Translations under genes and position numbers: made by a program
Source of the DNA: an uncultured Methanosarcinales archaeon
GTDB taxonomy: Archaea > Nanobdellota > Nanobdellia > Woesearchaeales > WAPY01
DNA length: 33,874 nt
Direction of reading: 5' to 3'
Assembly: GCA_964385745.1 (NCBI GenBank)
Contig: CAYLQB010000001.1
Span: forward strand, 1-33,874
Shown: piece after piece, positions 4,680 to 31,254 of the stretch
How positions within the stretch are numbered: position 1 is the first letter of the stretch
Layout: each line of letters begins with the position of its first letter
Notes under the pieces: model-generated
What the model was told of the DNA's origin: nothing
Databases searched by the model: none
What the model saw: the letters and a program-made list of their open reading frames with translations, nothing else

Positions 4680-4706
4680 CAGGACAACCAAACATCATAA
4701 CTTACT

Positions 4707-8343: not shown

Positions 8344-8363
8344 AACACAGGAAGATAAACTAA

Positions 8364-8371: not shown

Positions 8372-8444
8372 AAGGTTTTGATTAATCAGAGTTTAATTTA
8401 TGTTAAGAAAGGTTAAATAGAATACTTAATAACCAAATTTCTGG

Positions 8445-8924: not shown

Positions 8925-9079
8925 AAACTGAAAAAGGAAACCTCAATTTAAAAAACTTTTGGATTATAATAAGGCAGATTTAACTATCAATGAGCCGGTT
9001 AATAGTGTAACCAAGACCAGCAAAAGATTTAAATAATGACAACTAACTTAAGAGAATAACGAGCAGGCAAAGTGATAAA

Positions 9080-12577: not shown

Positions 12578-12653
12578 TAAAAGTGCAACACCAACAGAGA
12601 TAGGATTTAATTATTCTTTGTAGGCCTTATAAAAATAAATGATAAACCCCTCT

Positions 12654-13808: not shown

Positions 13809-13879
13809 CTGCTCATTTCATTGAAGCCCTTATTTTTAATTTTTAATGGGTCTATTTATTACTAAGGGACCGCATATAT

Positions 13880-14539: not shown

Positions 14540-14699
14540 ATTAATATAATACTTACTTGAATTAAAAAGTTTTTGTTTTACCTAAAGCAGGGGATAAGAT
14601 AAGTAAAAGGGACAGGATAAATTAAACAAGATAATGTTCCTAATATCATTGATTTTACTTTACATCCGGTTTTCTATTCTCTAAATGTTATTGGAAAAC

Positions 14700-14707
14700 T
14701 TTATAAA
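14700..14707 (+). promoter_or_regulatory. Candidate TATA box (TTTATAAA) for tRNA-Phe
   Basis: The octamer ends 28 nt before the mature tRNA 5' end (14736) and is preceded by an A-rich BRE-like GGAAAAC. Confidence 0.5.
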
Positions 14708-14735
14708 GAAAAACTAAATCCTTTTTTGTGGTATT

Positions 14736-14846
14736 GGGTCGGTAGCTCAGTGGGAGAGCACCACGCTGAAGCCGTGGGCGTCCGGGGTTCAAATTGGAAA
14801 CTATAATACCAAATTTTTAGTTTCAATGAAAGTCCCCGCCGACCCA
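14736..14846 (+). tRNA. tRNA-Phe (anticodon GAA) interrupted by a ~39-nt intron in the T-loop
   Basis: Hand-folded cloverleaf.
- Acceptor stem: GGGTCGG/CCGACCC, discriminator A.
- D arm: GCTC-AGTGGGA-GAGC.
- Anticodon arm: CCACG-CTGAAGC-CGTGG, with GAA at 14768-14770.
- Variable region: GCGTC.
- T stem: CGGGG (14783-14787) pairs with CCCCG (14834-14838).
- T loop: TTCAAAT, followed by 39 nt (14795-14833) that are not part of the tRNA.
No CCA is encoded, and a T-run follows. Confidence 0.85.
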
Positions 14847-14958
14847 TTTTCTTCTTTTAGTTTAGGTTATGAGCATAGTTGGTATGCTTCTTGGATGTCT
14901 TCCACTATTTTTGGTAAGGAGAATAATTGGTTTGTATTACTCTATAAAATAAGTATAG

Positions 14959-15292
14959 AAGTGAATATCCTCCTCAAACACCTTTTACCAGACATAAGAA
15001 AACCTGAACAGTTTTCTTTGCACAAAAACTAAAGAGTTTTTTGTGTTTTCTATGAAAATCTTAAGATGCTACTCATGTTAAGGCACGGAAGGTTCGGAGG
15101 ATTTCACAAAGTGAATATCCTCCTCAAACACCTTTTACCAGACATAAGAAAACCTGAACAGTTTTCTTTGCACAAAAACTAAAGAGTTTTTTGTGTTTTC
15201 TATGAAAATCTTAAGATGCTACTCATGTTAAGGCACGGAAGGTTCGGAGGATTTCACAAAGTGAATATCCTCCTCAAACACCTTTTACCAGA
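14959..15292. repeat. Tandem direct repeat, 150-bp unit, 2 perfect copies plus a partial third
   Basis: Block 14961-15110 is identical base for base to 15111-15260 by direct comparison. The first 32 nt recur at 15261-15292. The following TTTTCTGTGAAAATCTGAATGA resembles the unit-internal TTTTCTATGAAAATCTTAAGATG, so copy 3 looks like a deleted, diverged copy. Confidence 0.95.
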
Positions 15293-15465
15293 TTTTCTGT
15301 GAAAATCTGAATGACATCAACTCCCGACCATTTATTCCTCCTTCGTTTATAACCTCATATTTTAGTAGAACCAGAGAACAACTTAATAACCAGGAGTTAA
15401 GAACAAGCCAAGTTATTGTTATTATCTGAAGTTTGAAGTTAATAAACAATATCAAAACAAAAAAT

Positions 15466-15473
15466 TTTATAAA
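15466..15473 (+). promoter_or_regulatory. Candidate TATA box (TTTATAAA) for glyS
   Basis: The octamer ends 21 nt before ATG 15495, giving leaderless-type spacing. Confidence 0.45.
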
Positions 15474-15494
15474 GAATCATACTTAACTTAAGGT

Positions 15495-17036
15495 ATGGAA
15501 AAAATAAGCAACGCCGGGGATAAGACCAAGAATATAAAAATTAGTGATATCATCTCTTTCTGTAAAAAAAAAGGATTTGTTTTCCAAAGCTCTGAAATCT
15601 ATGGGGGCTTCGCGGGATTTTTTGATTATGGACCTTTAGGTGTAGAATTAAAGAACAAAATTAAGCAGGTATGGTGGAAAAAACATGTCAACCAGAGAGA
15701 AGATATTGTTGGAATTGACGGCTCGATAATTCTTAACCCAAAGGTTTGGGTTGCGTCTGGACACACAACAAAATTCTCTGACATTCTTGTCGAGTGCAAA
15801 AAATGCCATCAAAGATTTAGAGCTGACCAATTAATTGAGGAAAAAACAAAAAAGAATGTTGAGGGGCTTCCTGTTGAGGAACTGTCTAAATTAATCAAAG
15901 AGTATAAAATTAAATGCCCAAACTGCGGAGGCGAACTCTCAGAACCAAGAAAATTTAACATTATGTTCAAAACATATGTTGGTCCGACAGAATCGGAAGA
16001 GAACACTGCTTATTTAAGACCTGAAACAGCTCAAGTCATATTCACTGAATTTAAGAATGTACTTGATGTCTCACGTAAGAAACTTCCCTTTGGCATTGCA
16101 CAGATTGGAAAATCATTCAGAAATGAGATAAGCCCAAGGAATTTTCTCTTTAGAGCGAGGGAATTTGAGCAGGCAGAGATTGAATATTTTATAAGAGAAA
16201 AAGACATTAATAACTGCCCTTATTTTAATGAATTTGAGAATTATAGAATAAACATATTAAGCGATGACATGCAGAACAAAAATGAGAAAGAGAAGATGAT
16301 GAGTTTAAGAGAGGCGTTTGATAAGAAGATTATAAATAACGAATGGCAGGCGTTTTGGATTGGCTTTGAGCATAGTTTCCTCACCTCCTTAGGTCTAAGA
16401 CCTGAACATCTGAGAGCAAGGCAGCATTTGAGTACTGAGAGGGCTCACTACTCCCTTGACACATGGGATTTAGAATTCAAATTTCCTTTTGGCTGGAAAG
16501 AAATTGAGGGCATAGCGAATAGAACAACCTATGACATGAACAAACATATCAAATCCTCAAAAAAGGACTTAAGATATTACGATGAGGAAACAAAAGAAAA
16601 AATTGTCCCTTATGTTGTCGCTGAGCCGAGTCTTGGAATAGGGAGATTATTTTTAGCCATACTCTTCGAGGCATACAAGTATGACGAAAAGAGAGGCAAT
16701 ATTGTTTTGACATTAAAACCGGAGTTGGCTCCAATTGAGGTCGCTGTCTTTCCACTGTTATCAAACAAAAGAGAGTTACTAAGTTATGCCAAAAAAATCT
16801 TTAAAACGCTGAGTGAGGAGTTTAACTGTGTATTCGACAAATCAGGTTCGATAGGAAGAAGATACGCGAGACAGGATGAAGTAGGCACTCCTTACTGTAT
16901 AACAATTGACTTCGATTCCCTGAAAGATAAGGATTTCACATTAAGATTCAGGGACAGCACAAAACAGATTAGAGTCAGTGAATCAGAACTATTAAACAGG
17001 ATAAGGAATTTAATTAAGGAGGAAAAAACAGATTAG
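15495..17036 (+). CDS. glyS: Glycyl-tRNA synthetase, archaeal/eukaryotic dimeric class II type
   Basis: 513-aa ORF. N-terminal GFVFQSSEIYGGFAGFFDYGPLGVELKN. Class II motifs FRNEISPRNFLFRAREFEQAEIEYF and GIGRLFLAIL. C-terminal anticodon-binding domain contains GRRYARQDEVGTPYCITID. Confidence 0.95.
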   Translation: MEKISNAGDKTKNIKISDIISFCKKKGFVFQSSEIYGGFAGFFDYGPLGVELKNKIKQVWWKKHVNQREDIVGIDGSIILNPKVWVASGHTTKFSDILVECKKCHQRFRADQLIEEKTKKNVEGLPVEELSKLIKEYKIKCPNCGGELSEPRKFNIMFKTYVGPTESEENTAYLRPETAQVIFTEFKNVLDVSRKKLPFGIAQIGKSFRNEISPRNFLFRAREFEQAEIEYFIREKDINNCPYFNEFENYRINILSDDMQNKNEKEKMMSLREAFDKKIINNEWQAFWIGFEHSFLTSLGLRPEHLRARQHLSTERAHYSLDTWDLEFKFPFGWKEIEGIANRTTYDMNKHIKSSKKDLRYYDEETKEKIVPYVVAEPSLGIGRLFLAILFEAYKYDEKRGNIVLTLKPELAPIEVAVFPLLSNKRELLSYAKKIFKTLSEEFNCVFDKSGSIGRRYARQDEVGTPYCITIDFDSLKDKDFTLRFRDSTKQIRVSESELLNRIRNLIKEEKTD

Positions 17037-17105: not shown

Positions 17106-18359
17106 TTATTTCCTCAACCACTCAATCTCATCATCTGAAAGATTGAGTTCTTCAATTATTTGTTTTTGCCACTGCTTATTTTTGAACATAAACTTAAGAT
17201 AATACACGTACTGCTTTGACTGATTGAATGATGAATGCTGTTTCGATGCGAGCTTTTTTGCAATAGAATTCTTTTTTGCCAGTTTATTTTTGTAAATCCA
17301 GATTTTCAGAGGCCTACCTGGTGCTTTATAATTTATTAATGATTTATTCACCTTATTTTTCGCAGATGAGATTCCATATGTTAACATAATATTTATAGGA
17401 CTTAAAAATCGCCAGTACTGCCTCCTTCTAATTCTAGCCCTTAACAAATCAGCAAAAGACAGAAGATTGTATGCATTATTTAATGACTCTCCAGAATATT
17501 CAAGCGGGAGGTTCTCATCAATCCACAAAAACTCAGTGTTAATATCAAAGTTATTAATTTGCATCGCATCAGTGGGGTTAGCTGTTTTGAATATTCTAAA
17601 CAAAAATTTTTTTATTGACAATTGCTTATTCCTATAATCAAGAAGTTTAATCCCTTTATCATTCAGCATATTAGCATAAGCAAGAACCTGAAAATCATTT
17701 ATGGCTGCCCTCGCATCTCCTGATTCCAACCGTGCTATTCTCATCATTGCAGAATCATCAACTGATATCTTTTCTGACTTCGCAATCCTCTTTAAAATAT
17801 GGAACACTACATCTGAATCTAAAGGTCTTATTTTTATAAGATTGGAAAGCTTCTTTAAAGAAGCAAACTTTGAGGCCCAGGGAACCTGTGAGGGAGCATC
17901 TAAAAAATTTGCTGTTATAATTATTGGATATCTCGTTTTGTTTACCAACTTCGCTATCTCCGACAAACCGCCGCGGTCTTTTGTTCCTGAGATTCCTTCA
18001 AGCTCATCTATTAGTATGAGTTTTCCTTTTTTGAATAATGACATTTGACTAAGAGCATTTCCTATAATATTAGACACTTGATTCTTGTTTCTAAAATCAG
18101 AAGCATTTAATTCAACAAGTTCAAGTCCAAAATCATTCGCAAGTGCGTAAGCGAGGGAGGTCTTCCCGGAGCCACTGGGACCAAAAAGAAGAACTGCTTT
18201 TTTTCTCTTTTTTAGAAATTTCTTAAAATTAAGAATATATTCCTTTAAAAAAGCGACTGCTTCGTCTTGATTAACAAAGTCAGACAACTTGTCAGGTCTG
18301 TACTTATCAATCCATGGAAGCATCTTATCTGATGCCCTGATTGCCTTCGCCATAGCCAT
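17106..18359 (-). CDS. rfcL: Replication factor C large subunit
   Basis: PWIDKYRPDKLSDFVNQDEAV (RFC box II), Walker A GPSGSGKTSLAYALA and Walker B LILIDELEG. The six-frame ORF extends to 18434, but those extra 25 codons overlap rnp4 and lie upstream of the TATA element. ATG 18359 or 18353 (MAMAKAIR...) is preferred. Confidence 0.85.
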   Translation of the reverse strand: MAMAKAIRASDKMLPWIDKYRPDKLSDFVNQDEAVAFLKEYILNFKKFLKKRKKAVLLFGPSGSGKTSLAYALANDFGLELVELNASDFRNKNQVSNIIGNALSQMSLFKKGKLILIDELEGISGTKDRGGLSEIAKLVNKTRYPIIITANFLDAPSQVPWASKFASLKKLSNLIKIRPLDSDVVFHILKRIAKSEKISVDDSAMMRIARLESGDARAAINDFQVLAYANMLNDKGIKLLDYRNKQLSIKKFLFRIFKTANPTDAMQINNFDINTEFLWIDENLPLEYSGESLNNAYNLLSFADLLRARIRRRQYWRFLSPINIMLTYGISSAKNKVNKSLINYKAPGRPLKIWIYKNKLAKKNSIAKKLASKQHSSFNQSKQYVYYLKFMFKNKQWQKQIIEELNLSDDEIEWLRK

Positions 18360-18374
18360 TAGAAATTTAGTAAT

Positions 18375-18382
18375 TTTTATAA
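18375..18382. promoter_or_regulatory. Shared near-palindromic TATA element (TTTTATAA) between divergent rfcL and rnp4
   Basis: It lies 22 nt upstream of rnp4 ATG 18405. On the other strand it lies 21 nt upstream of rfcL ATG 18353 and 15 nt upstream of ATG 18359. Confidence 0.4.
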
Positions 18383-18404
18383 GCTTAACGATAATAGTCA
18401 TATT

Positions 18405-18911
18405 ATGGTTAATAGAAATACAAAAGCAGAGCAAAATAAGGAATCAAAGGAGAATAACAAATCAGATAAAAAGATAATAAGCCATGCAGAAAAAACAAAG
18501 GCAAAGAAAATATCAAGAAAACACACTGATAAAAAGAAGTATAGAAAATACAAGAAAAAACCAAGTGAACAGAGAGAGATTGCTCTGTCAAGAATAAAAA
18601 AACTCTTTAATCTGGCGGACAAAGTTGTTAATGAATATAAGGAAGGAGACCTTGACTTTGGAAAGAAATTAGCAAACAGATATGTTGAGATTGCCAGAAG
18701 GATATCAATGAAATACAAGGTCAGGATTCCTTCAGAGCTGAAGAGAAGATTCTGCAAAAAATGTCATTCTTTCTTGATTCCTGGATTAAATGTCAGAGTA
18801 AGAATTCAAGGAAATAAAGTTGTGTATACCTGCCTCGAATGCGGCAATATAATGAGATTCCCCTATGTCAGAGAGATAAAGAAAAAGAGAAAAAGAAGAA
18901 AGATAAAATAA
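18405..18911 (+). CDS. rnp4: RNase P protein component 4 (Rpp21/Rpr2 family)
   Basis: 168-aa ORF. Core is LANRYVEIARRISMKYKVRIPSELKRRFCKKCHSFLIPGLNVRVRIQGNKVVYTCLECGNIMRFPY, the Rpr2 zinc ribbon with C-x2-C...C-x2-C. Flanked by Lys-rich N- and C-terminal extensions. Confidence 0.8.
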   Translation: MVNRNTKAEQNKESKENNKSDKKIISHAEKTKAKKISRKHTDKKKYRKYKKKPSEQREIALSRIKKLFNLADKVVNEYKEGDLDFGKKLANRYVEIARRISMKYKVRIPSELKRRFCKKCHSFLIPGLNVRVRIQGNKVVYTCLECGNIMRFPYVREIKKKRKRRKIK

Positions 18912-18927: not shown

Positions 18928-19200
18928 TTAGCCCATACAACAATATTTGCCTTTGCTATTTGGGTCAGTCCCTGTGTAAGGAACTGCAATACCACTCGGA
19001 CAGGCACTAGGACTATCTACTGGCAGTTTAGTAGTTCCAGGACAGTATGCTGTTATATTGTTTACACCTTTATGCCACCATATAAACTTTCCTGTAAACG
19101 CTGCCACTAAAACAACAAGAACCAGCAGGGCAATTATTACAATAATAATCACATTAACAGAAAGCTCAGCTCCCTTCTTATTCTCCCTGGATTTAATCAT
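18928..19200 (-). CDS. Small class III signal peptide (pilin-like) protein; candidate structural pilin
   Basis: 90-aa ORF. MIKSRENKKG-AELSVNVIIIVIIALLVLVVLVAAF is followed by a 55-aa domain with 4 Cys. AGGAGGTG lies 5 nt upstream of the ATG, and TTTATAAA lies 72 nt upstream. Confidence 0.55.
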   Translation of the reverse strand: MIKSRENKKGAELSVNVIIIVIIALLVLVVLVAAFTGKFIWWHKGVNNITAYCPGTTKLPVDSPSACPSGIAVPYTGTDPNSKGKYCCMG

Positions 19201-19334: not shown

Positions 19335-19880
19335 TTAGTCAAGACATATCTTAAGAGTTATGAGAATGTTGTCCCCTGTGAATGTCTGAATCTTTGTTGG
19401 AAAGGTCTCGTAATTCTGTGATTTACACTCTTTATTTTTAGATGTGAAACTTAAATCATTAATCCTGTGAGCATCATCCTGACCATTTTTATATACTTCA
19501 AAAGTGTAATAATCTCCTTCCTCATCAAAATAAGTTAAGGATTTCTTTATGATAAATTTAACATATTCTAATGAATCTTCTCTGTTTGAAGGGTCATCCG
19601 GGTCCACACAGGATATCAATCTGCTTCCCTTATTATAGGAAAGAGCATCGTCAAGCAGGTCTTCAACAGAATATTTTGAACATTTAGTTGTTGTTCTTAG
19701 AAGTGCATCAACAAAACTCCCTGCTATCATATTCTTTTTTGCCGCAGTTTTGATATTTACAGGAGATTTATTCGAACCAAGACCTAGCTGAAGAAGTATC
19801 AAAAAAGCAAACACAAGCACTACCACAAAAATTGCCAATCCGAATACTTCCATCTGTGCCTTCTTACTGTTCAAATTCAT
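19335..19880 (-). CDS. Class III signal peptide (pilin-like) protein
   Basis: 181-aa ORF. MNLNSKKA-QMEVFGLAIFVVVLVFAFLILL. GAGGT lies 5 nt upstream, and the gene starts 18 nt after the stop of the preceding gene. Confidence 0.55.
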   Translation of the reverse strand: MNLNSKKAQMEVFGLAIFVVVLVFAFLILLQLGLGSNKSPVNIKTAAKKNMIAGSFVDALLRTTTKCSKYSVEDLLDDALSYNKGSRLISCVDPDDPSNREDSLEYVKFIIKKSLTYFDEEGDYYTFEVYKNGQDDAHRINDLSFTSKNKECKSQNYETFPTKIQTFTGDNILITLKICLD

Positions 19881-19898: not shown

Positions 19899-20393
19899 TT
19901 AACTGTATACTTTAAGTGTTAGTATAGCCAGAGAGTATGAATCAGACGAGACATTATAAATATTGACAGCTATATTCGAAGCATAAGCACTTTTATAATT
20001 TTTAGGAGTATTATTAAACACAGTAATCTCATTATCATCCGGGTATATATCTCTAATTGTTATTAAAGAGTTTCCGAATTTTGAAGTGTAAAATAAATGA
20101 GCATCAGATTCTTTCATTAAATCATGGAAGGCCAGTAGTTTATAATAATCAAAGCAGTTCTTTGTTGAATAATCATTACACCTTAACTCTGGGAGTGAGA
20201 CAATCTGGGATATTCCAATCATCCTCAAAGTTTTAACACTTTGAAACTGCTCGTTAAGAGCTGCCTCCTGTGACTTTATATAAAAACTGTAACCAAAGAG
20301 CATCATAAAAGAGAAAACAATCAAAACTACCATTATCTCCATTATCCTTATTTGAGCCGTCTTATTTAACTTGAGACCTCTTCTCAATAACAT
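19899..20393 (-). CDS. Class III signal peptide (pilin-like) protein
   Basis: 164-aa ORF. MLLRRGLKLNKTA-QIRIMEIMVVLIVFSFMMLFG. AAGGAGGT lies 6 nt upstream. Confidence 0.55.
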   Translation of the reverse strand: MLLRRGLKLNKTAQIRIMEIMVVLIVFSFMMLFGYSFYIKSQEAALNEQFQSVKTLRMIGISQIVSLPELRCNDYSTKNCFDYYKLLAFHDLMKESDAHLFYTSKFGNSLITIRDIYPDDNEITVFNNTPKNYKSAYASNIAVNIYNVSSDSYSLAILTLKVYS

Positions 20394-20458: not shown

Positions 20459-21535
20459 TTAATACATTTCAGGACAGGAATTATAGATTAACCCCTCATT
20501 AAAGGAGTTTATCTTATTAAGCTCATCATATAAATCTTTTATTTCATTTAGTTTAATATCCTCAATTCTTTCTGCTCTTATATTATTAACTGAAACATCT
20601 GTATCTTTCAGGAGAGGTAAAGCCCGCTCCAGCCCTGTTAAACAATCAGGGCTTAATTCTGAGTCAGTCACTAACTTAGAGTATCTCAAATAATAGATTT
20701 TGATAGAATAATGAAGTTTCTTGAGCAAATTATTAAAATTACAATCATATATCTCTTTATCAGATACTGAAGCAGCTGTTAAAGTTGAGAGTCCAATATA
20801 AAAAGAAACTCCCTCCCTTTCTACTTTTTCACCATATCCTAGAATAGTGTAATAAGTCAGATTTCCAATATTATTATATTTGGACCCTGACTGGCTGGAA
20901 TATGGCTTAACATAAATGAGGGTAACATCTTTATTTGTAACAGATTCTAAGTCATATGCGGTTGGCTTAACGAAACTGATTATCCTCACTTTACTCTTAT
21001 ATCTATTCGCTGTTGATATTGCGTTTTTTAAGCCATTACTTGAACCATCAAATTGCTCAACATTAAGCCCAACAGGAAGATCTGATTTTATATCTTCAAT
21101 CAAATCCTGACTAACTTTATTAGTATTGTTAATAAATATAAATTTTGTTTCTGGTTCAACGAGCATAATCAAGTTCGTAACATAGAAAGGAACTTCAAAT
21201 TTTTTTGTGAACAAAAAAAGCTGTCCGAGTTGAGGATTCAATTCTTTATTCGAGAATATATTCATATTTAAGGAGGAACCCCCAAAAATCTTAATTCCTC
21301 TGCAAGAATTTTCTATCTTAGCACCTGCTGTTTTTATAGTAACCTCTGTCTCATCACCAGAAGAAAAACTCTGAATAGTAGTCCTAATCCTTGAACCCAC
21401 CTCAAGGTTGAGCTTTGCCTCTGAGATTGCCTTATGAAACATTGCAATCCTCAAAAACATCATCAATATTAGAACTCCAACGATAATAACAAAAATCCAA
21501 GCTATCTGACTGGCCACAACACCTCTTTTCGCCAA
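20459..21535 (-). CDS. Pilin-like N-terminus fused to a ~320-aa extracellular domain, function unknown
   Basis: 358-aa ORF. MAKRGVVAS-QIAWIFVIIVGVLILMMFL. The TTG start is supported by GGAGGTGGTG 2 nt upstream. Confidence 0.5.
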   Translation of the reverse strand: MAKRGVVASQIAWIFVIIVGVLILMMFLRIAMFHKAISEAKLNLEVGSRIRTTIQSFSSGDETEVTIKTAGAKIENSCRGIKIFGGSSLNMNIFSNKELNPQLGQLFLFTKKFEVPFYVTNLIMLVEPETKFIFINNTNKVSQDLIEDIKSDLPVGLNVEQFDGSSNGLKNAISTANRYKSKVRIISFVKPTAYDLESVTNKDVTLIYVKPYSSQSGSKYNNIGNLTYYTILGYGEKVEREGVSFYIGLSTLTAASVSDKEIYDCNFNNLLKKLHYSIKIYYLRYSKLVTDSELSPDCLTGLERALPLLKDTDVSVNNIRAERIEDIKLNEIKDLYDELNKINSFNEGLIYNSCPEMY

Positions 21536-21567: not shown

Positions 21568-24500
21568 TCATTTCCCTTTCTTGCGTGAGCTCCCCTTGGT
21601 TCGGCGGTTCTTACTTTTACTTTTCTGCTCGGCTAAATCTTTAAGTTTCTTGTAAACATCTTCTCCTTTCGTTTTTTTGGACAACCTGTTAAGTTCTCTA
21701 CCTACATCTTTCCCCTTAATTCTATTCCCAAGTTTATCCAACCTTTCCCAAACATCACTCTGATTTATACTTTTCTTCTCTTTAGGAAGCTCTATTTCTA
21801 TAATCTCCTGCTCATTGGGTTGTTTGTTACTTACAGAATTTGCCGCTTCAGGAGGACGATTAACACTCTTTTTCTTGTTAGTTTTAATATTCTTACTCTG
21901 GTCTGTCTTTTTAGACGTCTTAAACGCATCCATTAATTTTCTTCTCTCCTCTTCTATCCTGGCCCTTCTTCTTATTAAAGCCAGTTCATCAGGTGTCAGG
22001 GGAGTTGCCTGCTTATACTGCCCGCTTGTATATTCTGAAGTAGGTTGGGAGCCCTGTGTCTTACCTGTGTAAGAAGTTTGTTTCGGAGTTGAATAACCTC
22101 TTAAGCTAACTGTATGAGTACTTTCCTTCTGTGGCTTTTTATGAGTTTTATTCTTACTTAATTGTGTATAAGCAAAGAATCCAACAACCCCTAATATGAT
22201 AATTAATATAAGTATCCATAAGAACATTTTAGAATGACCCTCTGGATGACTATCTGGATCATTCGGGTCGGTCCCGGCATTATACTCCTGACCGTCACTA
22301 AAACCATCCCCATCTGAATCAGCAACATGAGGGTCAGTATTCAATCTGTATTCTTCTATATTAGTCAGACCATCTTTGTCAGGATCCTCATTTGCATCAC
22401 TTGGATCATTGGGGTTGAGGCCATGGTTAATTTCCCAAGTATCAGGCATACCATCATTATCACTATCTTCTACTTTCGGAGAAGGTGTTTCATTCTTTTG
22501 ATTATCTGAGCAACCATCAACATCAACTTCTGCACCCCTCTCTGTTCCCGGACATAAGTCATCTTCATTTGGGACACCATCACAATCAGAATCAATAGAT
22601 TCATCACAGGTTTTAACTTCTTTTTTACAAACGCCATTATCACAGTTGTTGCTCTTACAATCTAAATTATTATTACATTGCTCTCCAATACTGCAGGGAC
22701 CGCATAAAGAACCACCACAATCAATATCTGTCTCATCATTATCAAGTTTACCATCATTACAGTGATTTGTTTCGTTCTTTTTATTAGAAAGAAAATCGCA
22801 CTCATTGGTTTCATTGCAATAACCACCTGATAAACAATCAGAGTCCTGCTCACAATGCAAGCCGTAACCTAAATTACATCTTTTAGCGCATATATTACCA
22901 CCACAATCAACATCTGTTTCATTATTATCTGGATTCCACACATGATTAAAACATGGACTTTCAAGTATTACTGCACTCTTGTTCATAAAAACACCATTAC
23001 TCCGTACAGGAGCAGACAAAATATTTCTGCCATAATTATCCTTTGCGTTACTAGTTACCCAGACCTTAAAATAATATGTTTTATTATATTCTAAATTAAG
23101 ATTATGAGCAGTAATCCAATCCTGAGTCCAGGGAATCTTCCTTAAAGTAATAATCTGTTCACCATCCTCCTCATCACTAGCTTCAGGTGGTTTCCCTTCA
23201 TAAACCACATACCTGATTTCTTTAAGTCCTGACTCCTTATCATTAGCGTACACTTTAAACCTTAACTTATTAAGGTCTGCTGACTGTTCAGGATTCTCAT
23301 ATCTAGTAGAATCATTTACATAATAAATAACCGGCTTTGAAGAATCAACGATAAAGGAGAAAAGTTTAACAACTGGATTAGAGACACCATAGAATTCACA
23401 GGCAGTTAAAAATTGAAAATTACCTGCATGCAAAACTCTTACTCCTTCACTGAAGAGAGTGTTATCTGGTTCGTCTTCGCTATTCATCTTCCTCCAAAGA
23501 TTGGATTCGCCATTACCTAATGCAATCATATTACTAAATTGGGTTGGGGTAATAGAATAAGGATCAGCAGCAGTGTTATTAGAATAAAAGCAAGCAGCAA
23601 CATTTCTGTTTGTTTTGACCTTTATCATAACATGAGTCCCATAAGTCGAAGTGTTTGATAACCATATTGGAACTTTGGGTTCAATCAAGGTTACGGTTGG
23701 GATAGCATTGGTGTCTGTTGAGAAGTGAATCCTAACTGGATCTGAGAGGTCGTCGGAGTGACTCTTGCACTGCACAACATAATTATAATCTGTTTTGTCA
23801 TTTAGGTTATTAAAAGTATAATAATGCGCTGTTGAATAAGTATCATCATTGTCTTCATTTTCTGTACTAAAATGCGACCCTTCAGAATAACTAAGATAAT
23901 CATTCATATAATCAAAAAAGTTGTTGGGCTCAACAGTATACCCCTCAAGTGTATTCTCATCCTCAAGTTTACAGACAGCTTCCAGAGAGGTCTTCAAATA
24001 TAATTTCGTACTTAACTCTTCATTATGGTAATAAGAAACAACTGATGGTTCCACTTTATAGGATGTTATTTTTGGGATTCCTGATAGCTTAAAAGTAAGC
24101 TTTTTATCATATTCCCCACCTGAATTGTCTGTACATTTAATATAGAATACGCTTCCTGTTTTAATATTCGCCAGATGCTTAAAAAAGTGTACTTTACCAC
24201 TCTCATCTGTTTCATTAGATTCAAAGAAAGAACCATGATTGTTAGGATTAAAAGCATAATTCTGAGAGTACTTACAAGTGTCCAGGTTAGTTATGTTCGC
24301 AAGTATCTCCAAATCAAATTCGCCTGATGTTGGAAAGACATTGCCTTGACTATCCGCTAAAGGATGTAAAACAATAATACTGCTTGGTGGAAGAATCTTA
24401 ACAGACAGAGTTTCATTACTTTGAACTCCTTTATAGTAAGCAGTTATGTTTGACTCTCCAGTCATTGAAGTTGTGCTGAATGGCTTAAATCTATCATCTG

Positions 24501-26658
24501 GATAAATAATAGGAGAAGGCCTGACGCATTCATAATCAAGATCAAATAATGAAATGTTAGTGAAATTGAAAGATATACCATTTTCACAGGTGATATAATC
24601 AGAGTTATCATCAGAAACTCCAAGGTAATATTCAGTATTTGGGTTTAGAGTGTAATAAAATACATTCGAAAGATAAGAGTACCCATCTGACCATAAAGGA
24701 TAATAATATCCATCATCTTTATAAAACAAGCTTAAATGTATCTCTGATGATGTTAAAGAAGTGTTGATTGTAACACCATCACTCTCTTTGTAATCAGACC
24801 AGAGACCTGCACCATTTTGAACCCTTACCCTGAAGTAATAAGTTGAACCATTCGTTAGGACAACTCCATAATAATTACCTGGTATAAACTGAGCTTCATA
24901 GTTAATAACACCCCCATTACTTTTATTTTCATTATCAATGGTGGCATAATTAACATTTGCTATGAGGGTATCATAGTCAGGACCTTTCTTATAAACCTTA
25001 TACTCATAACCAGATACCCCGGATTGCTCATCCTTCGCGCTGAAACTGAAATCAAGTTGCTTAGGTGTGTTAGTCACATCAGGATTAGATGAGTCAGCAA
25101 CACTATCATCTAACATAGTAATCTCAGGGGGACTTGAATCAACTATGAAATTAACAGAGTCATCAGAACAATCTGCTCCTACACAACATTCAACATAAAT
25201 ATGATGTTCACCATCGCTCAAAGTTTTAGTTTCAGCATAGTGCTCGTAGGGATTATTAGGATTTAATGGCAGAGGAATTTGTTGTGTCTCATTATCAAGA
25301 TAGTAATCACATGTTGCCTGTTTCGTTGTAGTAACATCAAGGTTTGCATTTTCTCCTGCAAAACCATTATTTGCCGGACTTACGATGAATACCTGGAAGG
25401 GTAAGTTCGGATTTACACTTACAGAAACAGAACTTTTCGCTTCAACACCCAAGTAATTTTTACAGATGATATTAAAATCAAAATCAGCATTATCTTCTTT
25501 TGTCTCAAAAATAAAAAAGTGTTCTTTAGAGTATGTACTAGCATCAGAAACATTCTCCTTCGTAAGGTTGTTATAATCAAAAAAGTAATTTTGCATATTA
25601 TCAAAATTAGAAATTTCATCATTGTCTATTTTGCAAACCATATCCTCACTTGTATTGACAAGTATTAAACTTGAGTAATAACCTGAAGGATTACTTTCCG
25701 TTATAATCTGGGGATTCGCAGAAATATAAGTGATTTGTGGAAAAGCATTATCTAAGATAAAAGTGTAATTCTTATAGATAAAATCTCCTCCGGTATCATG
25801 TTGACATTTAACGTAAAAAGTTTTACCGTTAATATAATCCATACTTCCACTTATTTCAAAATCAGAAAAATTAAATTGAGTATTAGTGCTGTCCGATGAC
25901 TGAAAATCCTCCCATGAAACAGACGGGTTCCTCCTCCATTTACATGATGCTGGTGATGATGTGATAACAGATATATTGACAATATTTGAATTGACATGAA
26001 TTTTGTTGTCAGAGTCAGCCATTGGGAGAATTTTAATTATGAAAGGTAGGGGCTCAACAGTCACAGTTTTTGAATCTGATTCTCCAAAATATGTTGCAGT
26101 TATCGTTGCTGACCCCACGCCTGTTGCTGTTATTGTTGATCTGGACAGGTCAATGTTAATCTTATTTGAAGATGAAGTATCAACATTAAGGTTTGAACTG
26201 TGGGTCACATCCTCTCTTGTATTACCATCAAAATAAGCATAAACTTTAAAGAATCCGCTCTGACCTAAAGTAAGAGAATCAACGGTTTCAATACTTAAGC
26301 GAGTAGGTTTTCTCATCGATAAATTAATAGTGAAAAGTGTATATCTCTCTCCATAATTACCAAACAGGTCCATATACTCAATGCTAAAATTATAAGTATG
26401 CTTATCAACTAAAGAAGTATACGGTTGATAAGTAAAGGAGGTATTATCATCTGACTGCGAAATCAGATTAAGAGCCACCTGGTTGGAATTGCTAGTGTCA
26501 AGAAGAGACGCATCCAAGACCGTGACTGAATCGGTGAAATTAGCAATTATGGATGGTGTTTGAGTGGTTACCACTACAGTGGCGCAGACAGTTTTTAACT
26601 GAAATAAAAGCAGGAATAACAATATCAAAAAGAAAATTTCCTTATTGTTCTTCAACAT
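21568..26658 (-). CDS. Giant type I membrane surface protein (1696 aa) with Sec signal, Ig-like repeats, Cys-knot modules, TSP3-like Ca-binding repeats, one TM helix and a basic cytoplasmic tail
   Basis: Features in order:
- Signal peptide MLKNNKEIFFLILLFLLLFQLKTVCA.
- Big_2-like ITATGVGSATITATY.
- Two homologous ~550-600-aa supermodules.
- Two ETD[VI]DCGG Cys modules (22609-22959).
- D-x-D-x-DG repeats such as DSDCDGVPNEDDLCP and DSDGDGFSDGQEY (22228-22608).
- TM helix MFLWILILIIILGVVGFFAY (22168-22227).
- A 199-aa K/S/T/Q-rich tail.
GGAGGT lies 6 nt upstream of the ATG. Confidence 0.85.
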   Translation of the reverse strand: MLKNNKEIFFLILLFLLLFQLKTVCATVVVTTQTPSIIANFTDSVTVLDASLLDTSNSNQVALNLISQSDDNTSFTYQPYTSLVDKHTYNFSIEYMDLFGNYGERYTLFTINLSMRKPTRLSIETVDSLTLGQSGFFKVYAYFDGNTREDVTHSSNLNVDTSSSNKINIDLSRSTITATGVGSATITATYFGESDSKTVTVEPLPFIIKILPMADSDNKIHVNSNIVNISVITSSPASCKWRRNPSVSWEDFQSSDSTNTQFNFSDFEISGSMDYINGKTFYVKCQHDTGGDFIYKNYTFILDNAFPQITYISANPQIITESNPSGYYSSLILVNTSEDMVCKIDNDEISNFDNMQNYFFDYNNLTKENVSDASTYSKEHFFIFETKEDNADFDFNIICKNYLGVEAKSSVSVSVNPNLPFQVFIVSPANNGFAGENANLDVTTTKQATCDYYLDNETQQIPLPLNPNNPYEHYAETKTLSDGEHHIYVECCVGADCSDDSVNFIVDSSPPEITMLDDSVADSSNPDVTNTPKQLDFSFSAKDEQSGVSGYEYKVYKKGPDYDTLIANVNYATIDNENKSNGGVINYEAQFIPGNYYGVVLTNGSTYYFRVRVQNGAGLWSDYKESDGVTINTSLTSSEIHLSLFYKDDGYYYPLWSDGYSYLSNVFYYTLNPNTEYYLGVSDDNSDYITCENGISFNFTNISLFDLDYECVRPSPIIYPDDRFKPFSTTSMTGESNITAYYKGVQSNETLSVKILPPSSIIVLHPLADSQGNVFPTSGEFDLEILANITNLDTCKYSQNYAFNPNNHGSFFESNETDESGKVHFFKHLANIKTGSVFYIKCTDNSGGEYDKKLTFKLSGIPKITSYKVEPSVVSYYHNEELSTKLYLKTSLEAVCKLEDENTLEGYTVEPNNFFDYMNDYLSYSEGSHFSTENEDNDDTYSTAHYYTFNNLNDKTDYNYVVQCKSHSDDLSDPVRIHFSTDTNAIPTVTLIEPKVPIWLSNTSTYGTHVMIKVKTNRNVAACFYSNNTAADPYSITPTQFSNMIALGNGESNLWRKMNSEDEPDNTLFSEGVRVLHAGNFQFLTACEFYGVSNPVVKLFSFIVDSSKPVIYYVNDSTRYENPEQSADLNKLRFKVYANDKESGLKEIRYVVYEGKPPEASDEEDGEQIITLRKIPWTQDWITAHNLNLEYNKTYYFKVWVTSNAKDNYGRNILSAPVRSNGVFMNKSAVILESPCFNHVWNPDNNETDVDCGGNICAKRCNLGYGLHCEQDSDCLSGGYCNETNECDFLSNKKNETNHCNDGKLDNDETDIDCGGSLCGPCSIGEQCNNNLDCKSNNCDNGVCKKEVKTCDESIDSDCDGVPNEDDLCPGTERGAEVDVDGCSDNQKNETPSPKVEDSDNDGMPDTWEINHGLNPNDPSDANEDPDKDGLTNIEEYRLNTDPHVADSDGDGFSDGQEYNAGTDPNDPDSHPEGHSKMFLWILILIIILGVVGFFAYTQLSKNKTHKKPQKESTHTVSLRGYSTPKQTSYTGKTQGSQPTSEYTSGQYKQATPLTPDELALIRRRARIEEERRKLMDAFKTSKKTDQSKNIKTNKKKSVNRPPEAANSVSNKQPNEQEIIEIELPKEKKSINQSDVWERLDKLGNRIKGKDVGRELNRLSKKTKGEDVYKKLKDLAEQKSKSKNRRTKGSSRKKGK

Positions 26659-26695: not shown

Positions 26696-29563
26696 TTAGT
26701 GTATTATAATAGTTACTTCCGGTGCAGTCATGTAAACGGCAAAATTAATACCATTAATATCTTTATTATCAACCGGCCCGCCGTTTAAGGTAGCATTAAC
26801 AACAAACTCACCTAGAATACCCCTCAAATCTGCGATTTTTTTATCATTATTGTCTGTTTTGTCAAGTGTAAATGTATACCTACAATAATCATTACCACAG
26901 TTAAGTTCATTAAGAGGTTTCAGCAGTACGCCATCTTCACCATTTCGTATTTTCAGATAAATACTGTTTATCTTAACTCCTGGGGTGAAGTCAGCACGAA
27001 CATTATAATGACCCCAAGTAAGCAGAGGAATCTTTGTGTTTGAGTATTTAACAGGGCTAACAGTCAGGTTGATGTACCCCTTCCCAATGCCCTTAACAAG
27101 TAATTGCCTATAAAGTTCATCTTTTCCATCTTCAGATTTACAGTCCAGATTCATAATATAAGTGCAGGGCGTGACATTATAAAAATTAACAAACATAAAA
27201 GATGAAATCCTCCCTGAAGTGTCCGATGTCGGCTCGGAAAGGATAGGTGGGTATATTGTATAAGAACAAGTCGCTCTTTTGGAAAGCTGTACAAAGGCGG
27301 ATAAATTATAAATGTCTGAGGCATTGGAGAATCTAAACAGATAATTAACTATAGACAAGTTCGACCTTGCCAAATAAAACCTTACTGTGTTTAAATTACT
27401 ATGAGTACCGAATTGATCAGTTGTAATATATCTTAAATAATAAACCCCATTATTTGCAAGAGAGAGAACAGGATTTTTGAAGAGATTAATGTTAAAACTC
27501 CTCCTATCTTCTGAAAGGTTAGCAGAAGTATCAGGACAGCACAAACCATCAGAGTCAACACAGTAAGAGGCATTGACTAAACTAATATATTGGGGAGCAC
27601 TATCACTAACCTTAAAGGATAATACAGGATTATTCCCATTGATTACTAAATTGTTATTTAAACAGGTTATGTCAGTAGGTTTGGTATCATTTATACAATT
27701 TTCATAATCAACATTTTCGGTGTTGATGCAATCTGCTTCTGAATCTCCATTCGCATCTTTAACGCATTTATTGTTTATCCAACGACAAACACCCAGACCG
27801 CATGAATCAGTGCTTCTCGCAGGCAGACAAGAGTTTGATGAGTCCCAGCCAGAACCCTCGCAGGCCTGTTCGGTTGAATAATCCTCACATCTTACATGGT
27901 CAGAGCATGCCTCACATCCAGATGATGACATGACACACTTTCCCAACAAACTACAATCAGAGGGCGTGCAGTTCATAAAGAGACCATTACAAACATCACA
28001 ATTACTCTGAGTACTCACTTCAGGATAACATATCCCTTTATTAAGCTCGGTGTTAGTGTCCTTCCAACTGCAGTTAAGCCCACAACTGTTACCTAAACAA
28101 GCATCCTTTGAATCAAGATCATAACAGGTTAATGAATCACAATCTTTACATGCATCCAATATTGTGTTTGAATAATCATAATAACAGAAGTCATTAGTAT
28201 TCAAACAAGTACCTTCATCATAAAATAAACCAAGAGGATTGCCTGAGTTGGCACAGATATTTGGTTTCTTGCAGGTTGTCTTATGATTAGGGAGTTCTAC
28301 ACATACTGCATTATAGTTACTACAATTATATGATACTCCCTCTGAGAGCGGAGCAAATGCCAGGTGATTATCCTCATCGCATGACATTCTCAAATTAGCA
28401 TCCAGGGCATCTTTCTCTTCTCCATTATAACAGAACTCATAATTAGGGAGAACACCTTCACACAGAGGATTACCTGTCATTATTGAAGCAGTTAAGGGCT
28501 CTGACAGAGAACCATCAGAATGAACAATATAAATGGAGTAATTATATCCTGTATCCCACTGGGTAGTTTTATCAACCAGAGAAGTAGCATACGGTGGAAG
28601 CATCTCATTAAAATTTGAGTTTTTTCTTTTTATCATATAACCATTAAAATCATTACACTCGTGAGGTACTGACCATATTAATTTTACAAATGGCTTACCT
28701 CTCAGGGGCTCAGCCGAAAAACCCACATTATCCAGATTACAGGAAATCTCTCCTTCACTCACAAGCGTAAAATTAACTTCTTCTTGTCCATTATCAGTCA
28801 AGGTGATAAAGGTCGAAGAGGGGGCATATTTCATACCCGCTGTTATTTTCATTGCAGTTAATGTGTACCTATCATTAGGTAAATTAATTAATTTATAAAA
28901 GCCATTTTCATCCGATAAGACCGTGTAACTATGCTCATCTGAATATGCAATAACCCTTGAATAAGCAATCGGACTGGACTCCTCATCTTTAATATAACCA
29001 TAAATAACTCCCTCTCCCATTACATTTGGTGGCTGAACAGGTTGTTGCTCATTCTCCACACAAAAACCAGATTCTTGATCACAGAATAAACCCGCTGCTG
29101 TACATAAATCAGTACCACACTCCGAGCAATTAGACACAAGTTCTCCATTGGATTTACAATAATACATTGAATTTTCAATACATCCGACTCCATAATTTTC
29201 TGTGCAGTCATACGAATAATCCTGGGGTATATGCCTACATTCATTAGCATTATTTATCTCCGGATGAAATACACCTTCCATATCATCACACCAAGAATTA
29301 GTTTCGAAATAAGGATGTATAACATTAATATTATCTATTACAAAACAACAACCCTTTTGGGCGTAATACTGTAAAGCGGGGTCATTGCAGTCAGCTTCTA
29401 CATAAAAACCATTGTTACATTCAGCTTCAACCGATGCAGGAGTAACACCCATATTATTATTGTGAACACAACAGCCAGCACTTACTGTTTGGGCGAGAAT
29501 AAGAAACGAGCCAAACACAACAAGGATTAAAAGTATTTCTGAAAAAAGTTTGCTTGTCTTCAT
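26696..29563 (-). CDS. Cysteine-rich secreted protein (955 aa) with a CarboxypepD_reg-like beta-sandwich and an FN3-like domain
   Basis: Start is taken at ATG 29563 (MKTSKLFSEILLILVVFGSFLILAQTVSA-GCC), which has AGAGGTG 6 nt upstream; the ORF-track start at 29596 has none. I count 58 Cys. GVIYGYIKDEESSPIAYSRVIAY...DENGFYKLINLPNDRYTLTA looks like a carboxypeptidase-regulatory-like fold. There is no C-terminal TM helix. Confidence 0.8.
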   Translation of the reverse strand: MKTSKLFSEILLILVVFGSFLILAQTVSAGCCVHNNNMGVTPASVEAECNNGFYVEADCNDPALQYYAQKGCCFVIDNINVIHPYFETNSWCDDMEGVFHPEINNANECRHIPQDYSYDCTENYGVGCIENSMYYCKSNGELVSNCSECGTDLCTAAGLFCDQESGFCVENEQQPVQPPNVMGEGVIYGYIKDEESSPIAYSRVIAYSDEHSYTVLSDENGFYKLINLPNDRYTLTAMKITAGMKYAPSSTFITLTDNGQEEVNFTLVSEGEISCNLDNVGFSAEPLRGKPFVKLIWSVPHECNDFNGYMIKRKNSNFNEMLPPYATSLVDKTTQWDTGYNYSIYIVHSDGSLSEPLTASIMTGNPLCEGVLPNYEFCYNGEEKDALDANLRMSCDEDNHLAFAPLSEGVSYNCSNYNAVCVELPNHKTTCKKPNICANSGNPLGLFYDEGTCLNTNDFCYYDYSNTILDACKDCDSLTCYDLDSKDACLGNSCGLNCSWKDTNTELNKGICYPEVSTQSNCDVCNGLFMNCTPSDCSLLGKCVMSSSGCEACSDHVRCEDYSTEQACEGSGWDSSNSCLPARSTDSCGLGVCRWINNKCVKDANGDSEADCINTENVDYENCINDTKPTDITCLNNNLVINGNNPVLSFKVSDSAPQYISLVNASYCVDSDGLCCPDTSANLSEDRRSFNINLFKNPVLSLANNGVYYLRYITTDQFGTHSNLNTVRFYLARSNLSIVNYLFRFSNASDIYNLSAFVQLSKRATCSYTIYPPILSEPTSDTSGRISSFMFVNFYNVTPCTYIMNLDCKSEDGKDELYRQLLVKGIGKGYINLTVSPVKYSNTKIPLLTWGHYNVRADFTPGVKINSIYLKIRNGEDGVLLKPLNELNCGNDYCRYTFTLDKTDNNDKKIADLRGILGEFVVNATLNGGPVDNKDINGINFAVYMTAPEVTIIIH

Positions 29564-29859
29564 AAACGACACCTCTTTTATGATTAATTCTTTCAATACA
29601 CAAATGGACTAAACTTCAATGCATAACATAAAAATAGGTCAAAACTTGTTATATAACTTATTTTTATGCATCACATTAATTTATACACTAACAAAATATA
29701 TTATTATTTAAATCTTTCTAAATTAGGTAGGAAATAACAGAAGAAATAAGACATAACAGGAGCATAGCAGGAAACAACGAGGAGAGGTAAAGAACTGCCC
29801 AGGAGGACTTTAGGAATAGATTATATTTCTTACTTGCCTTTATTGATTAAAAGACCTCC

Positions 29860-31254
29860 CTATTTACATATTAAATTAGAAGTACAATGACCCATAGCAC
29901 CTGAAGCGAGATTACATGTCTCACCAGGTTGTTTACCTTTATAAGTATCATCGCAGCAGGTCCCGCAACACTCAACACTTATATTTATCTCCTGCCAATC
30001 AGATTCCTTGGAAAGATCATAAACAGAAATTGTGTAGGTAACATTTTTACCTATGAAACTGGCGTTCGGTTTGAAAATATTTGTCTGAATTAAATCATTA
30101 TCCATGTCCTTAATTAATATAAATGTATAATCTTCGTCAGGATCAACAGAGCAGTTTGTAAAATTGATATACTGCATACTGTTATGACATATCGCAGGAT
30201 TAGTTCCAATAGGATTATCAATCCGCTGATAACAATATTTTCCATCACTGTTTTTTTTATTCAGATTCTTTAACACAGGCGGCCTGTTCTGCCTGAGGAA
30301 ATAGAATGTATAAGGACTCCCATCCTTCCACTTAAAAGAGTAATCCTTAACAGCGATAACATCATATAATTTTCCGTCAATAACTTTTTCAACATGAATA
30401 CTGTTAGGATAAGCGTATTCTGCTGTAGTATCACTAATATCAAAACTTGCATCGTTGACATCAGAAATAACTGCCTTGTTTACAACATCATAAATTCTCC
30501 TAAAATCTAACTGAACTTCATATGATTTAGCAGAAATGACTTTGTTGAAAAATTTAACAGGATAATAAATCTTAAAGCCAACTGCCTTTCTATCAAATGA
30601 AACATTAACATAAGGTGCTCCGACAAGGGATAATTCGCCATTGAAGGTTTTATTTAAACTCTTAAGGTCGAAGCAGTTCTCAAAGTCATTAAGGACAAAA
30701 CTCTCTATATCTCTCTTAATTGTAGGATAGGAAGGACCAAGCGGGTGAATCCTACTCTGTTCCAATAGAGGAAGATAAGGATAACCACAAGAACCGAACA
30801 GGGGATAAGAAGGCGGGAGGTCATAAGTACTGGCCAAAATCCAATAACTCATATAAAATCTGGACTTCTTTATTTTAACCTGATTACCAACTAATCTAAT
30901 GCCATTTATGGAAAAATCATCAGGTGTCCTACCTCCCTGTGTTTTGAGTATGTAACCTCCTTGTTCACCGATAAGTTTTAATGATCTCTCTGCAGAATTT
31001 TTAAGGCAATTCTGCATTTGAGTATCAATGGATAACAACCCCTTCTGATAGGAAGAAGAGAGGATACCACTCCTGAGAGTGTTTTTATAATGAGAATAGG
31101 ACAAGAGAAAGAGAACCAAAAAAACAACAAATATAACAACACCCACAACCGCAAATATGAAAATCTGCGATTTCCTGTTTATTAATAAAGTCCTGTTGCT
31201 TTTAACAAGCCCTTTTCTGTTTACTCTCTCCCTCTTAAATCTGCCGAACAACAA
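29860..31254 (-). CDS. Pilin-like N-terminus fused to a ~400-aa extracellular domain ending in a Cys cluster
   Basis: 464-aa ORF. A basic N-terminus is followed by NRKS-QIFIFAVVGVVIFVVFLVLFLL. C-terminus is ECCGTCCDDTYKGKQPGETCNLASGAMGHCTSNLICK. TTG start with AGAGGTG 7 nt upstream. Confidence 0.55.
   Translation of the reverse strand: MLFGRFKRERVNRKGLVKSNRTLLINRKSQIFIFAVVGVVIFVVFLVLFLLSYSHYKNTLRSGILSSSYQKGLLSIDTQMQNCLKNSAERSLKLIGEQGGYILKTQGGRTPDDFSINGIRLVGNQVKIKKSRFYMSYWILASTYDLPPSYPLFGSCGYPYLPLLEQSRIHPLGPSYPTIKRDIESFVLNDFENCFDLKSLNKTFNGELSLVGAPYVNVSFDRKAVGFKIYYPVKFFNKVISAKSYEVQLDFRRIYDVVNKAVISDVNDASFDISDTTAEYAYPNSIHVEKVIDGKLYDVIAVKDYSFKWKDGSPYTFYFLRQNRPPVLKNLNKKNSDGKYCYQRIDNPIGTNPAICHNSMQYINFTNCSVDPDEDYTFILIKDMDNDLIQTNIFKPNASFIGKNVTYTISVYDLSKESDWQEINISVECCGTCCDDTYKGKQPGETCNLASGAMGHCTSNLICK

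Follow-up and report, generated by a model that had tools for sequence, protein, structure and literature searches.

A giant membrane-anchored surface protein with a cysteine-rich and TSP3-type stalk represents a DPANN family encoded beside pilin-like genes

Here we describe a 33,874-nucleotide stretch of archaeal DNA (contig CAYLQB010000001.1 of assembly GCA_964385745.1; hereafter the window) and the 1696-residue protein, the giant, encoded on its minus strand at positions 21568-26658. The window is AT-rich (~34% GC) and carries housekeeping genes for a family B DNA polymerase, NMD3, an archaeal CCA-adding enzyme, an RFC-like AAA protein, SepF and SMC. The open reading frame (ORF) of the giant begins with an ATG, 7 nucleotides 5' of which lies a GGAGG Shine-Dalgarno site, and contains every string that an earlier note on this DNA had quoted from it. 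The giant, a modular surface protein with a type I membrane anchor, belongs to a Woesearchaeota-like DPANN archaeon of marine sediment and consists of a signal peptide, a long array of immunoglobulin (Ig)-like and fibronectin type III (Fn3) domains, two cysteine modules, acidic thrombospondin type 3 (TSP3) repeats, a single transmembrane (TM) helix and a basic cytoplasmic tail. We show that this architecture is the blueprint of a protein family, and that the gene stands in a conserved cluster together with small proteins that have pilin-like N-termini.

Only two hydrophobic segments are present in the giant, at residues 6-32 and 1473-1502. The first follows a basic n-region and forms part of a Sec-type signal peptide (residues 1-27, positions 26578-26658), which is probably cleaved after VCA. 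The second contains the TM helix (residues ~1478-1500, positions 22159-22227; Kyte-Doolittle peak 2.97), flanked by charges of -3 outside and +4 inside. N-x-S/T sequons precede the helix in 29 of 31 cases, all cysteine-rich modules lie N-terminal to it, and the 15 residues C-terminal to it have a net charge of +4. These features fit a large domain outside the cell, and the earlier description of a surface-exposed type I membrane protein with a Sec signal peptide agrees with them. The earlier note had also ended the protein with a C-terminal TM anchor. A single TM helix is indeed there, but it is not the end of the protein, since a cytoplasmic tail of 196 residues follows (residues 1501-1696, positions 21571-22158; net charge +28). 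Anchoring of the PGF-CTERM/archaeosortase type involves a TM segment at the extreme C-terminus with few basic residues behind it, which is not the arrangement seen here. On inspection, we rejected a lipobox, a PGF-CTERM and a class III signal for the giant itself. No other large protein of the gene cluster has a C-terminal TM helix, in agreement with the earlier note, which had singled out the giant as the only clearly anchored type I protein of this block.

The ectodomain had been read as about 1200 residues of Ig-like domains. This holds at the level of the fold, based on an AlphaFold2 model, Foldseek comparisons and a profile match to the PDB, but the earlier reading missed that the region is internally duplicated: an alignment of residues 177-634 to 729-1228 has 24% identity (E 1e-22). 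Each copy comprises a Big_2-like domain, three domains of ~100 residues with one conserved cysteine pair each, and a fourth domain. The N-terminal region (positions 26047-26577) consists of a domain at residues 28-114 and a Big_2-like domain at residues 115-204. By BLASTP, residues 115-212 are similar to repeated domains of the protein P0006 that are annotated as PF02368. Pfam gave no match to Big_2 (PF02368) in the giant at E <= 1, nor any to the EGF/Cys-knot models, both of which the earlier note had suggested.

The first copy of the unit (positions 24739-26046) was modelled with AlphaFold2 from an alignment of 18 family sequences, alignment A2. The model contains four consecutive beta-sandwich domains, with a predicted local distance difference test score (pLDDT) of 86, and Foldseek returned 539 PDB matches for it at E <= 1e-3. 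The top matches (E 1e-9 to 4e-11) were Ig/Fn3 arrays of adhesion receptors, bacterial large adhesins and an archaeal S-layer protein. Six cysteines are invariant in alignment A2, one pair in each of the Ig-like domains 1-3, in which they probably form disulfides. The fourth domain matches titin Fn3 when positions 310-400 of the A2 profile are compared with the PDB (3lpw_A, a two-domain chain, E 5e-8; 8oq9_A, E 7e-5). The Pfam fn3 model (PF00041) stays below threshold on the giant (14.6 bits against a cutoff of 25, E 0.04) and is passed by the relative P0072. Domains 1-3 have no match in Pfam or NCBIfam. The second copy, delimited by self-alignment as a super-unit at residues 641-1235 (positions 22954-24738), again contains a Big_2-like domain, three Ig-like domains (cysteines 795/842, 896/964 and 1023/1087) and one Fn3 domain. 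Like modular Ig/Fn3 adhesins and receptors (6xi3, GhpA 9g8b, contactins and PTP-delta; Foldseek E ~1e-10), the giant has a tandem beta-sandwich array, which in those proteins is the element that reaches and binds. Common to them is the fold class alone, at 7-14% identity; the mode of anchoring and the stalk differ.

Between this array and the membrane lies a strongly acidic stalk (residues 1228-1477, net charge -45). Its first part is formed by two modules of eight cysteines each, module 1 at residues 1236-1287 (positions 22798-22953) and module 2 at residues 1300-1351 (positions 22606-22761). Their cores are ETDVDCGG at residue 1247 and ETDIDCGG at residue 1309, and the pattern ETDxDCGG appeared 0 times in 2000 shuffles. 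A search with the module region identified 37 proteins, down to E 3e-26, and the 87 modules extracted have eight cysteine columns in common, with the consensus C-x-DG-x3-G-DETD[VI]DCGG-x-C-x2-C-x2-G-x2-C-x4-DC-x-S-x2-C-x4-C. The two modules seen by the earlier note are thus genuine. They have no sequence relative in Pfam, NCBIfam or the PDB, and our literature search found no description of the ETDxDCGG motif. A PDB profile match to the knob of a cow antibody complementarity-determining region 3 was at chance level and was discarded.

Knottins are the nearest structural comparison. The module string CEQDSDCLSGGYC resembles CKQDSDCLAGCVC of the inhibitor cystine knot EETI-II, and 23 residues of the module's C-terminal half can be superposed on knottins at 0.8 Å. 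However, the module has eight cysteines and an additional ETDxDCGG half, and it repeats inside large proteins and does not occur as a free inhibitor. We did not adopt a knottin assignment, because the similarity is not significant. When GTDB species genomes were scanned for ETD[VIF]DCGG, at least 538 loci were confirmed. The best 80 of these are mostly from Myxococcota, with Minicystis, Labilithrix, Chondromyces, Nannocystis and Polyangium strains among the cultured ones; the archaea among the same 80 are Woesearchaeota, Nanoarchaeota/Nanoarchaeia, Altiarchaeota and Methanosarcinales metagenome-assembled genomes. In the sampled bacteria, up to 25 copies of the module follow one another in tandem, and most of these proteins lack a TM helix. 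In the sampled archaea it stands N-terminal to a C-terminal TM helix, in several with TSP3 repeats in between. It is either an ancient extracellular module or one transferred between domains. That the social, surface-active Myxococcota have it too may point to a general function in building extracellular structures.

The second part of the stalk is an acidic TSP3_bac region (residues 1352-1472, positions 22243-22605) that ends with GTDPNDPDSHP just before the TM helix. The earlier note had counted at least five D-x-D-x-DG repeats. Five are present, at residues 1356, 1377, 1398, 1425 and 1447, and fit the pattern [DE]xDxDGxx[DN], but only four are strictly DxDxDG and the fifth reads ExDxDG. In 2000 shuffles the repeat occurred with a mean of 0.02-0.04 and a maximum of 2. 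Their assignment to the TSP3 type was correct: TSP3_bac (PF18884) scores 55.7 bits against the Pfam cutoff of 25 (E 4e-15, in two stretches) and is the one significant Pfam family in the giant. With this match, the Ig folds of the ectodomain and the external topology, neither outcome occurred that the earlier note had named as fatal to its description, namely a lack of TSP3 and Ig-type matches or a large domain inside the cytoplasm. The eukaryotic model TSP_3 (PF02412) did not match the giant at E <= 1; it matches the relatives P0085 (47 bits, above the cutoff of the model) and P0072. NCBIfam matches are confined to the TSP3 repeats, with weak ones to anchor_PA1041 and MtsD. We rejected membership in the Amuc_1099 family of NCBIfam, a pilus-like system model that scores 53.8 bits (cutoff 50), because the match covers just 34 residues of TSP3 repeat.

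The repeats are putative Ca2+-binding elements. Bacterial TSP3 proteins (PF18884), such as those with OmpA-type and PA1041-type anchors, have the same DxDxDGxxDxxE…GTDP repeat, also as an acidic, presumably Ca-binding linker beside a membrane or wall anchor. The giant differs from them in its DPANN host, its archaeal single TM anchor with a long cytoplasmic tail, and the 8-cysteine module without a family model that precedes its repeats. The type 3 repeats of thrombospondin and COMP (PF02412) likewise follow the DxDxDG logic of Ca binding with interleaved cysteines, as in DSDCDGVPNEDDLCP of the giant, which by contrast lacks the C-terminal lectin-like domain and the EGF repeats of those proteins. 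Our literature search found no description of TSP3 repeats in DPANN archaea.

The tail behind the TM helix is rich in Lys, Ser and Thr and has a polybasic C-terminus. Two of its segments stand out as motifs, RRKLMDAF at residues 1572-1579 (positions 21922-21945) and DVWERLDKL at residues 1635-1643 (positions 21730-21756). The tail is conserved as far as the relative P0003, at ~30% identity. With phmmer, the giant's tail matched only the two closest relatives, and wider conservation is visible only as short motifs. Among 64 tails of related proteins, KxxKx[LIMV]F[DE]xF is present in 33 (0.9 in shuffles) and D[VI]FxxLxx[IL], often repeated, in 29 (0.1 in shuffles), and a polybasic stretch ends many of them. 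The tails of P0072 and P0138 have AKKA/KKKPT repeats reminiscent of polyanion-binding tails.

Conserved and often repeated motifs, a polybasic end and conservation to P0003 would all fit a transmembrane receptor or cell-cell junction protein that relays the binding of its ectodomain to a partner cell through its tail to a division, cytoskeleton or transport machine, in the manner of cadherins or integrins, and eukaryotic Ig/Fn3 receptors are among the Foldseek neighbours of the ectodomain. We regard such a role, taken by itself, as rather improbable. Pfam and NCBIfam detected no enzymatic or known signalling domain in the tail, the motifs match no described family, and Lys-rich tails may simply bind acidic lipids.

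Exhaustive HMMER searching with residues 36-1235 (E <= 1e-3) identified 365 cluster representatives related to the ectodomain of the giant, 80 of which match the whole unit from end to end. Downstream of the unit, these 80 proteins have a cysteine module in 69 cases, a DxDxDG repeat in 68 and a TM helix in 74, and the strict order unit, cysteine module, DxDxDG, TM is kept in 62. The giant follows this order (1247/1309 < 1356-1447 < 1478). Across the family, the median distance from the last DxDxDG to the TM helix is 25 residues, and tails have a median of 176 residues, with 20% Lys. The blueprint of the family is a Sec signal peptide, a variable N-terminal part, a unit of ~400 residues (three Ig-like domains with putative disulfides and one Fn3 domain), one to many 8-cysteine modules, TSP3_bac repeats ending ~25 residues before the membrane, one TM helix, and a Lys-rich tail of 75-400 residues with two short conserved motifs. 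Matches to TSP3_bac, TSP_3 and fn3 recur among the members, which are named 'hypothetical protein' of Candidatus Woesearchaeota or of an unclassified archaeon where a name is given, and neither Pfam nor NCBIfam has a model for the family. Within it, the giant is unusual only in its duplicated unit; the closest relative, P0051, has one unit only. In P0075, the variable N-terminal part contains five copies of the Cu-binding_MopE 'putative metal-binding motif' (PF11617, 125 bits) around residues ~669-699. Different repeats of cysteine and metal type seem to come and go in these proteins.

The earlier note considered a membrane-proximal TSP3 stalk unusual for an archaeal protein, and on that reading the giant would be a one-off with a rare acquisition. 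A word-indexed search gave the same impression. With the whole protein it was swamped by TSP3-rich proteins and returned partial matches apart from P0003, which alone matched the unit together with the stalk, TM helix and tail; with unit 1 alone it found no relatives. The giant looked like an orphan because of this type of search, and the exhaustive one was needed to see the family. Given the 365 relatives, the shared stalk order in 62 of the 80 whole-unit relatives and the recurrence of the cassette of unit, cysteine module, TSP3 repeats and TM helix in Woesearchaeota, Nanoarchaeota and Nanoarchaeia genomes, the stalk is the rule for this family, and we give almost no credence to a one-off origin. 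Relatives with the same stalk architecture, of the kind that the earlier note had proposed to look for, exist in DPANN genomes.

Archaeal S-layer glycoproteins typically have many N-glycosylation sequons and are anchored by a TM helix at the C-terminus. The giant has both, with 29 extracellular sequons, its family is widespread in DPANN, and the S-layer protein among the Foldseek matches of unit 1 is that of Haloferax volcanii (7ptp_A, E 5e-9). The giant might accordingly be an S-layer or envelope-scaffold protein in which the Ig-like array forms a lattice and the stalk, TM helix and tail form its anchor, with the link to pilin genes incidental or envelope-related. However, family members vary in length from 761 to 6098 residues and have unit duplications, fusions and 1-22 cysteine modules, which fits a regular lattice poorly. 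A conserved, motif-bearing cytoplasmic tail of 75-400 residues is not an S-layer feature, and eight loci keep the same operon with pilin-like genes. An S-layer function is thus unlikely.

We compared the gene neighbourhood of the giant with those of four relatives, namely L001 (encoding P0003) and L002, L003 and L004 (encoding P0051, P0072 and P0059), and with four loci recovered independently through the cysteine module (L027, L045, L055 and L082). The same gene order was observed in the window, L001, L002 and L004, and again in L027, L045, L055 and L082. A large cysteine-rich secreted protein, a protein of ~450 residues with a pilin-like N-terminus and a secreted protein of 966 residues precede the giant. 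It is followed by small proteins of ~160, 350, 165, 175 and 90 residues, four or five of them in each of the eight loci. The earlier note had missed this conserved operon. L003 has weaker matches to two small genes, on the opposite strand. Little space separates the genes of the cluster, and a GGAGG site precedes each of them.

In the window the cluster lies on the minus strand. Its first gene (31391-33817) encodes an 808-residue, very cysteine-rich protein (74 cysteines) with motifs such as CGNGVIDPGEDCD. Its true start may lie beyond the end of the window at 33874, since no N-terminal hydrophobic segment follows the TTG start. Next come a 464-residue protein with a class III-like N-terminus containing NRKSQIFIFAVVGVV (29860-31254) and the 966-residue protein (26696-29596), which is secreted, cysteine-rich and contains a CarboxypepD_reg domain according to Pfam. 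Homologues of the 808- and 464-residue proteins occupy the same positions in L001 and L004. The 966-residue protein matches residues 471-978 of P0003 and the ORF at 2-2212 of L002 (E 3e-124). As an N-terminal part, it is fused with the giant into one protein in L001 (P0003, ORF 10001-16486), L004 (P0059, ORF 10001-16672) and L027 (ORF 96-9371). The window and L002 encode the two separately, and both genes there have a signal peptide and a GGAGG site of their own. Gene fission or fusion has occurred within the family.

Directly 3' of the giant, the window encodes a 358-residue pilin-like protein beginning with MAKRGVVASQIAWIFVIIVG (20459-21535; GGAGG site before the start), homologues of which follow the giant in L001, L002, L004, L027, L045, L055 and L082. 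Three further pilin-like proteins succeed it: one of 164 residues containing NKTAQIRIMEIMVVLIVF (19899-20393), with homologues in the same order in L001, L002, L004, L027, L045 and L055; one of 181 residues containing SKKAQMEVFGLAIFVVVLVF (19335-19880), with homologues in the same order in L001, L002, L004, L045 and L055; and one of 90 residues containing NKKGAELSVNVIIIVIIALLVLVV (18928-19200), possibly a filament subunit, with homologues in L001, L002, L004 and L045. A fifth, of 159 residues, is encoded at 8445-8924, also on the minus strand. Its homologue is directly 3' of the giant in L001, L004, L027 and L045, and its location in the window, ~13 kb from the cluster and among housekeeping genes, points to a local rearrangement. 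The window and L002 also have a common housekeeping neighbourhood adjoining the cluster (window 18405-18911 on the plus strand and 17106-18434 on the minus strand; L002 8023-15410), in which some strand orientations differ and which includes genes for an Rpr2-like RNase P subunit, an RFC-like AAA protein, a class II aminoacyl-tRNA synthetase, SMC and a GT4 glycosyltransferase.

The N-termini of all five small window proteins and of their homologues consist of a short basic leader, a K/R-G/A/S-Q-type site and a hydrophobic helix of ~25 residues; in the small proteins of L082, a textbook K/R-G-Q precedes the helix. As sequences, these N-termini look like archaeal class III (prepilin) signal peptides. 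A Peptidase_A24 gene stands beside the cluster in L001 only (27.1 bits against a cutoff of 26.5). There, at 1-4053, it adjoins HxsD and two radical SAM genes (one with a faint SPASM match), which represent a peptide-maturation set of the His-Xaa-Ser system without evident link to the cluster.

The layout of one large protein with a Ca-binding motif and several small pilin-like proteins parallels bacterial fimU-pilVWXY1E operons. The giant could then be a PilY1-like partner of a minor-pilin set, in which the four small proteins (one of 358 residues) would make up a priming or tip complex, the 90-residue protein would be a possible major subunit, and the giant, perhaps after cleavage above the membrane, would be displayed on a type IV filament or regulate it via Ca2+. 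The match to the pilus-like Amuc_1099 model points the same way, but it is a match of the repeat alone. Moreover, the giant has no Pfam match to the PilY1/PilC domain (a beta-propeller) and no other homology to these proteins, there is no evident cleavage site, and both the TM helix and the conserved tail speak for a giant that is held in the membrane permanently. We therefore consider a PilY1-like function quite unlikely.

DPANN pilins are commonly undetectable by similarity and lie in islands together with specific surface proteins, according to Makarova, Wolf and Koonin (2019, PMC6393860). The 'dark-matter' type IV pilus islands of DPANN archaea, as presented there and by Makarova et al. 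(2016, PMC4858521), likewise combine profile-invisible small proteins with signal peptides and large surface proteins. Those islands were recognised via FliI- and TadC-type genes, which are absent from the flanks analysed here. The keyword passages of these two papers contain no protein that combines the unit, cysteine module, TSP3 repeats, TM helix and tail, nor its fixed gene order.

Taken together, the architecture and the constant neighbourhood lead us to favour, at a probability of about 0.55, the view that the giant is a stalked adhesin or receptor of a conserved pilin-like surface apparatus of DPANN archaea. The Ig/Fn3 array (~12 domains, tens of nanometres if extended) would be the part that reaches out and binds. 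The cysteine modules, locked by putative disulfides, and the Ca2+-loaded TSP3 repeats would form a stiff, acidic and protease-resistant stalk beside the membrane that carries the array away from it through the envelope space. Through its TM helix and its basic, motif-bearing tail, the giant would be fixed to the cell and may be linked to a partner in the cytoplasm or to the inner membrane leaflet. With the co-encoded pilin-like proteins, the giant would then work in attachment to a surface or to a host cell.

Several observations weigh against this view. No pilin or class III signal profile of Pfam or NCBIfam matched the small neighbours, which could instead be N-terminally anchored membrane proteins, and no gene for an assembly ATPase or a TadC/FlaJ platform lies within the 8-10 kb flanks of the loci. 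For both reasons, we infer the pilin identity of these neighbours and do not take it as given. With its TM helix and long tail, the giant cannot itself ride on a pilus. The AlphaFold2 model of the cysteine modules is of moderate quality (pLDDT 67.5; the C-terminal half of module 2 reaches 87-90), and their best Foldseek neighbours, the knottins, are non-significant (E 0.1-0.4 over 23 residues). Finally, the public runs that contain the window sequence, from a marine sediment metagenome, are all DNA runs.

Much of archaeal diversity belongs to the DPANN archaea, most of which probably live attached to host cells. To our knowledge, no attachment molecules are known for lineages of the Woesearchaeota/Nanoarchaeota type. 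A bolder proposal, which we hold to be doubtful, is that the operon encodes an undescribed host-attachment organelle of such lineages, in which a stalked adhesin, stiffened by Ca2+ and disulfides, operates together with a type IV-like filament, the tail motifs link partner binding to a machine inside the cell, and ETDxDCGG defines a new domain family shared with Myxococcota. If this were true, the giant would be a prokaryotic analogue of cadherin- or integrin-type receptors.

In conclusion, neither the domain types of the giant (Ig-like, Fn3 and TSP3) nor the concept of pilin islands in DPANN archaea is new. The fixed blueprint with its operon, the ETDxDCGG module and the tail motifs are not described in the libraries and literature that we searched. 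What appeared to be an isolated, odd giant is thus a searchable family with a fixed blueprint, a gene neighbourhood, an 8-cysteine module and cytoplasmic motifs. The family provides targets for annotation through new domain models, for metaproteomics, for labelling in cryo-electron tomography and for the biochemistry of a Ca-dependent stalk.

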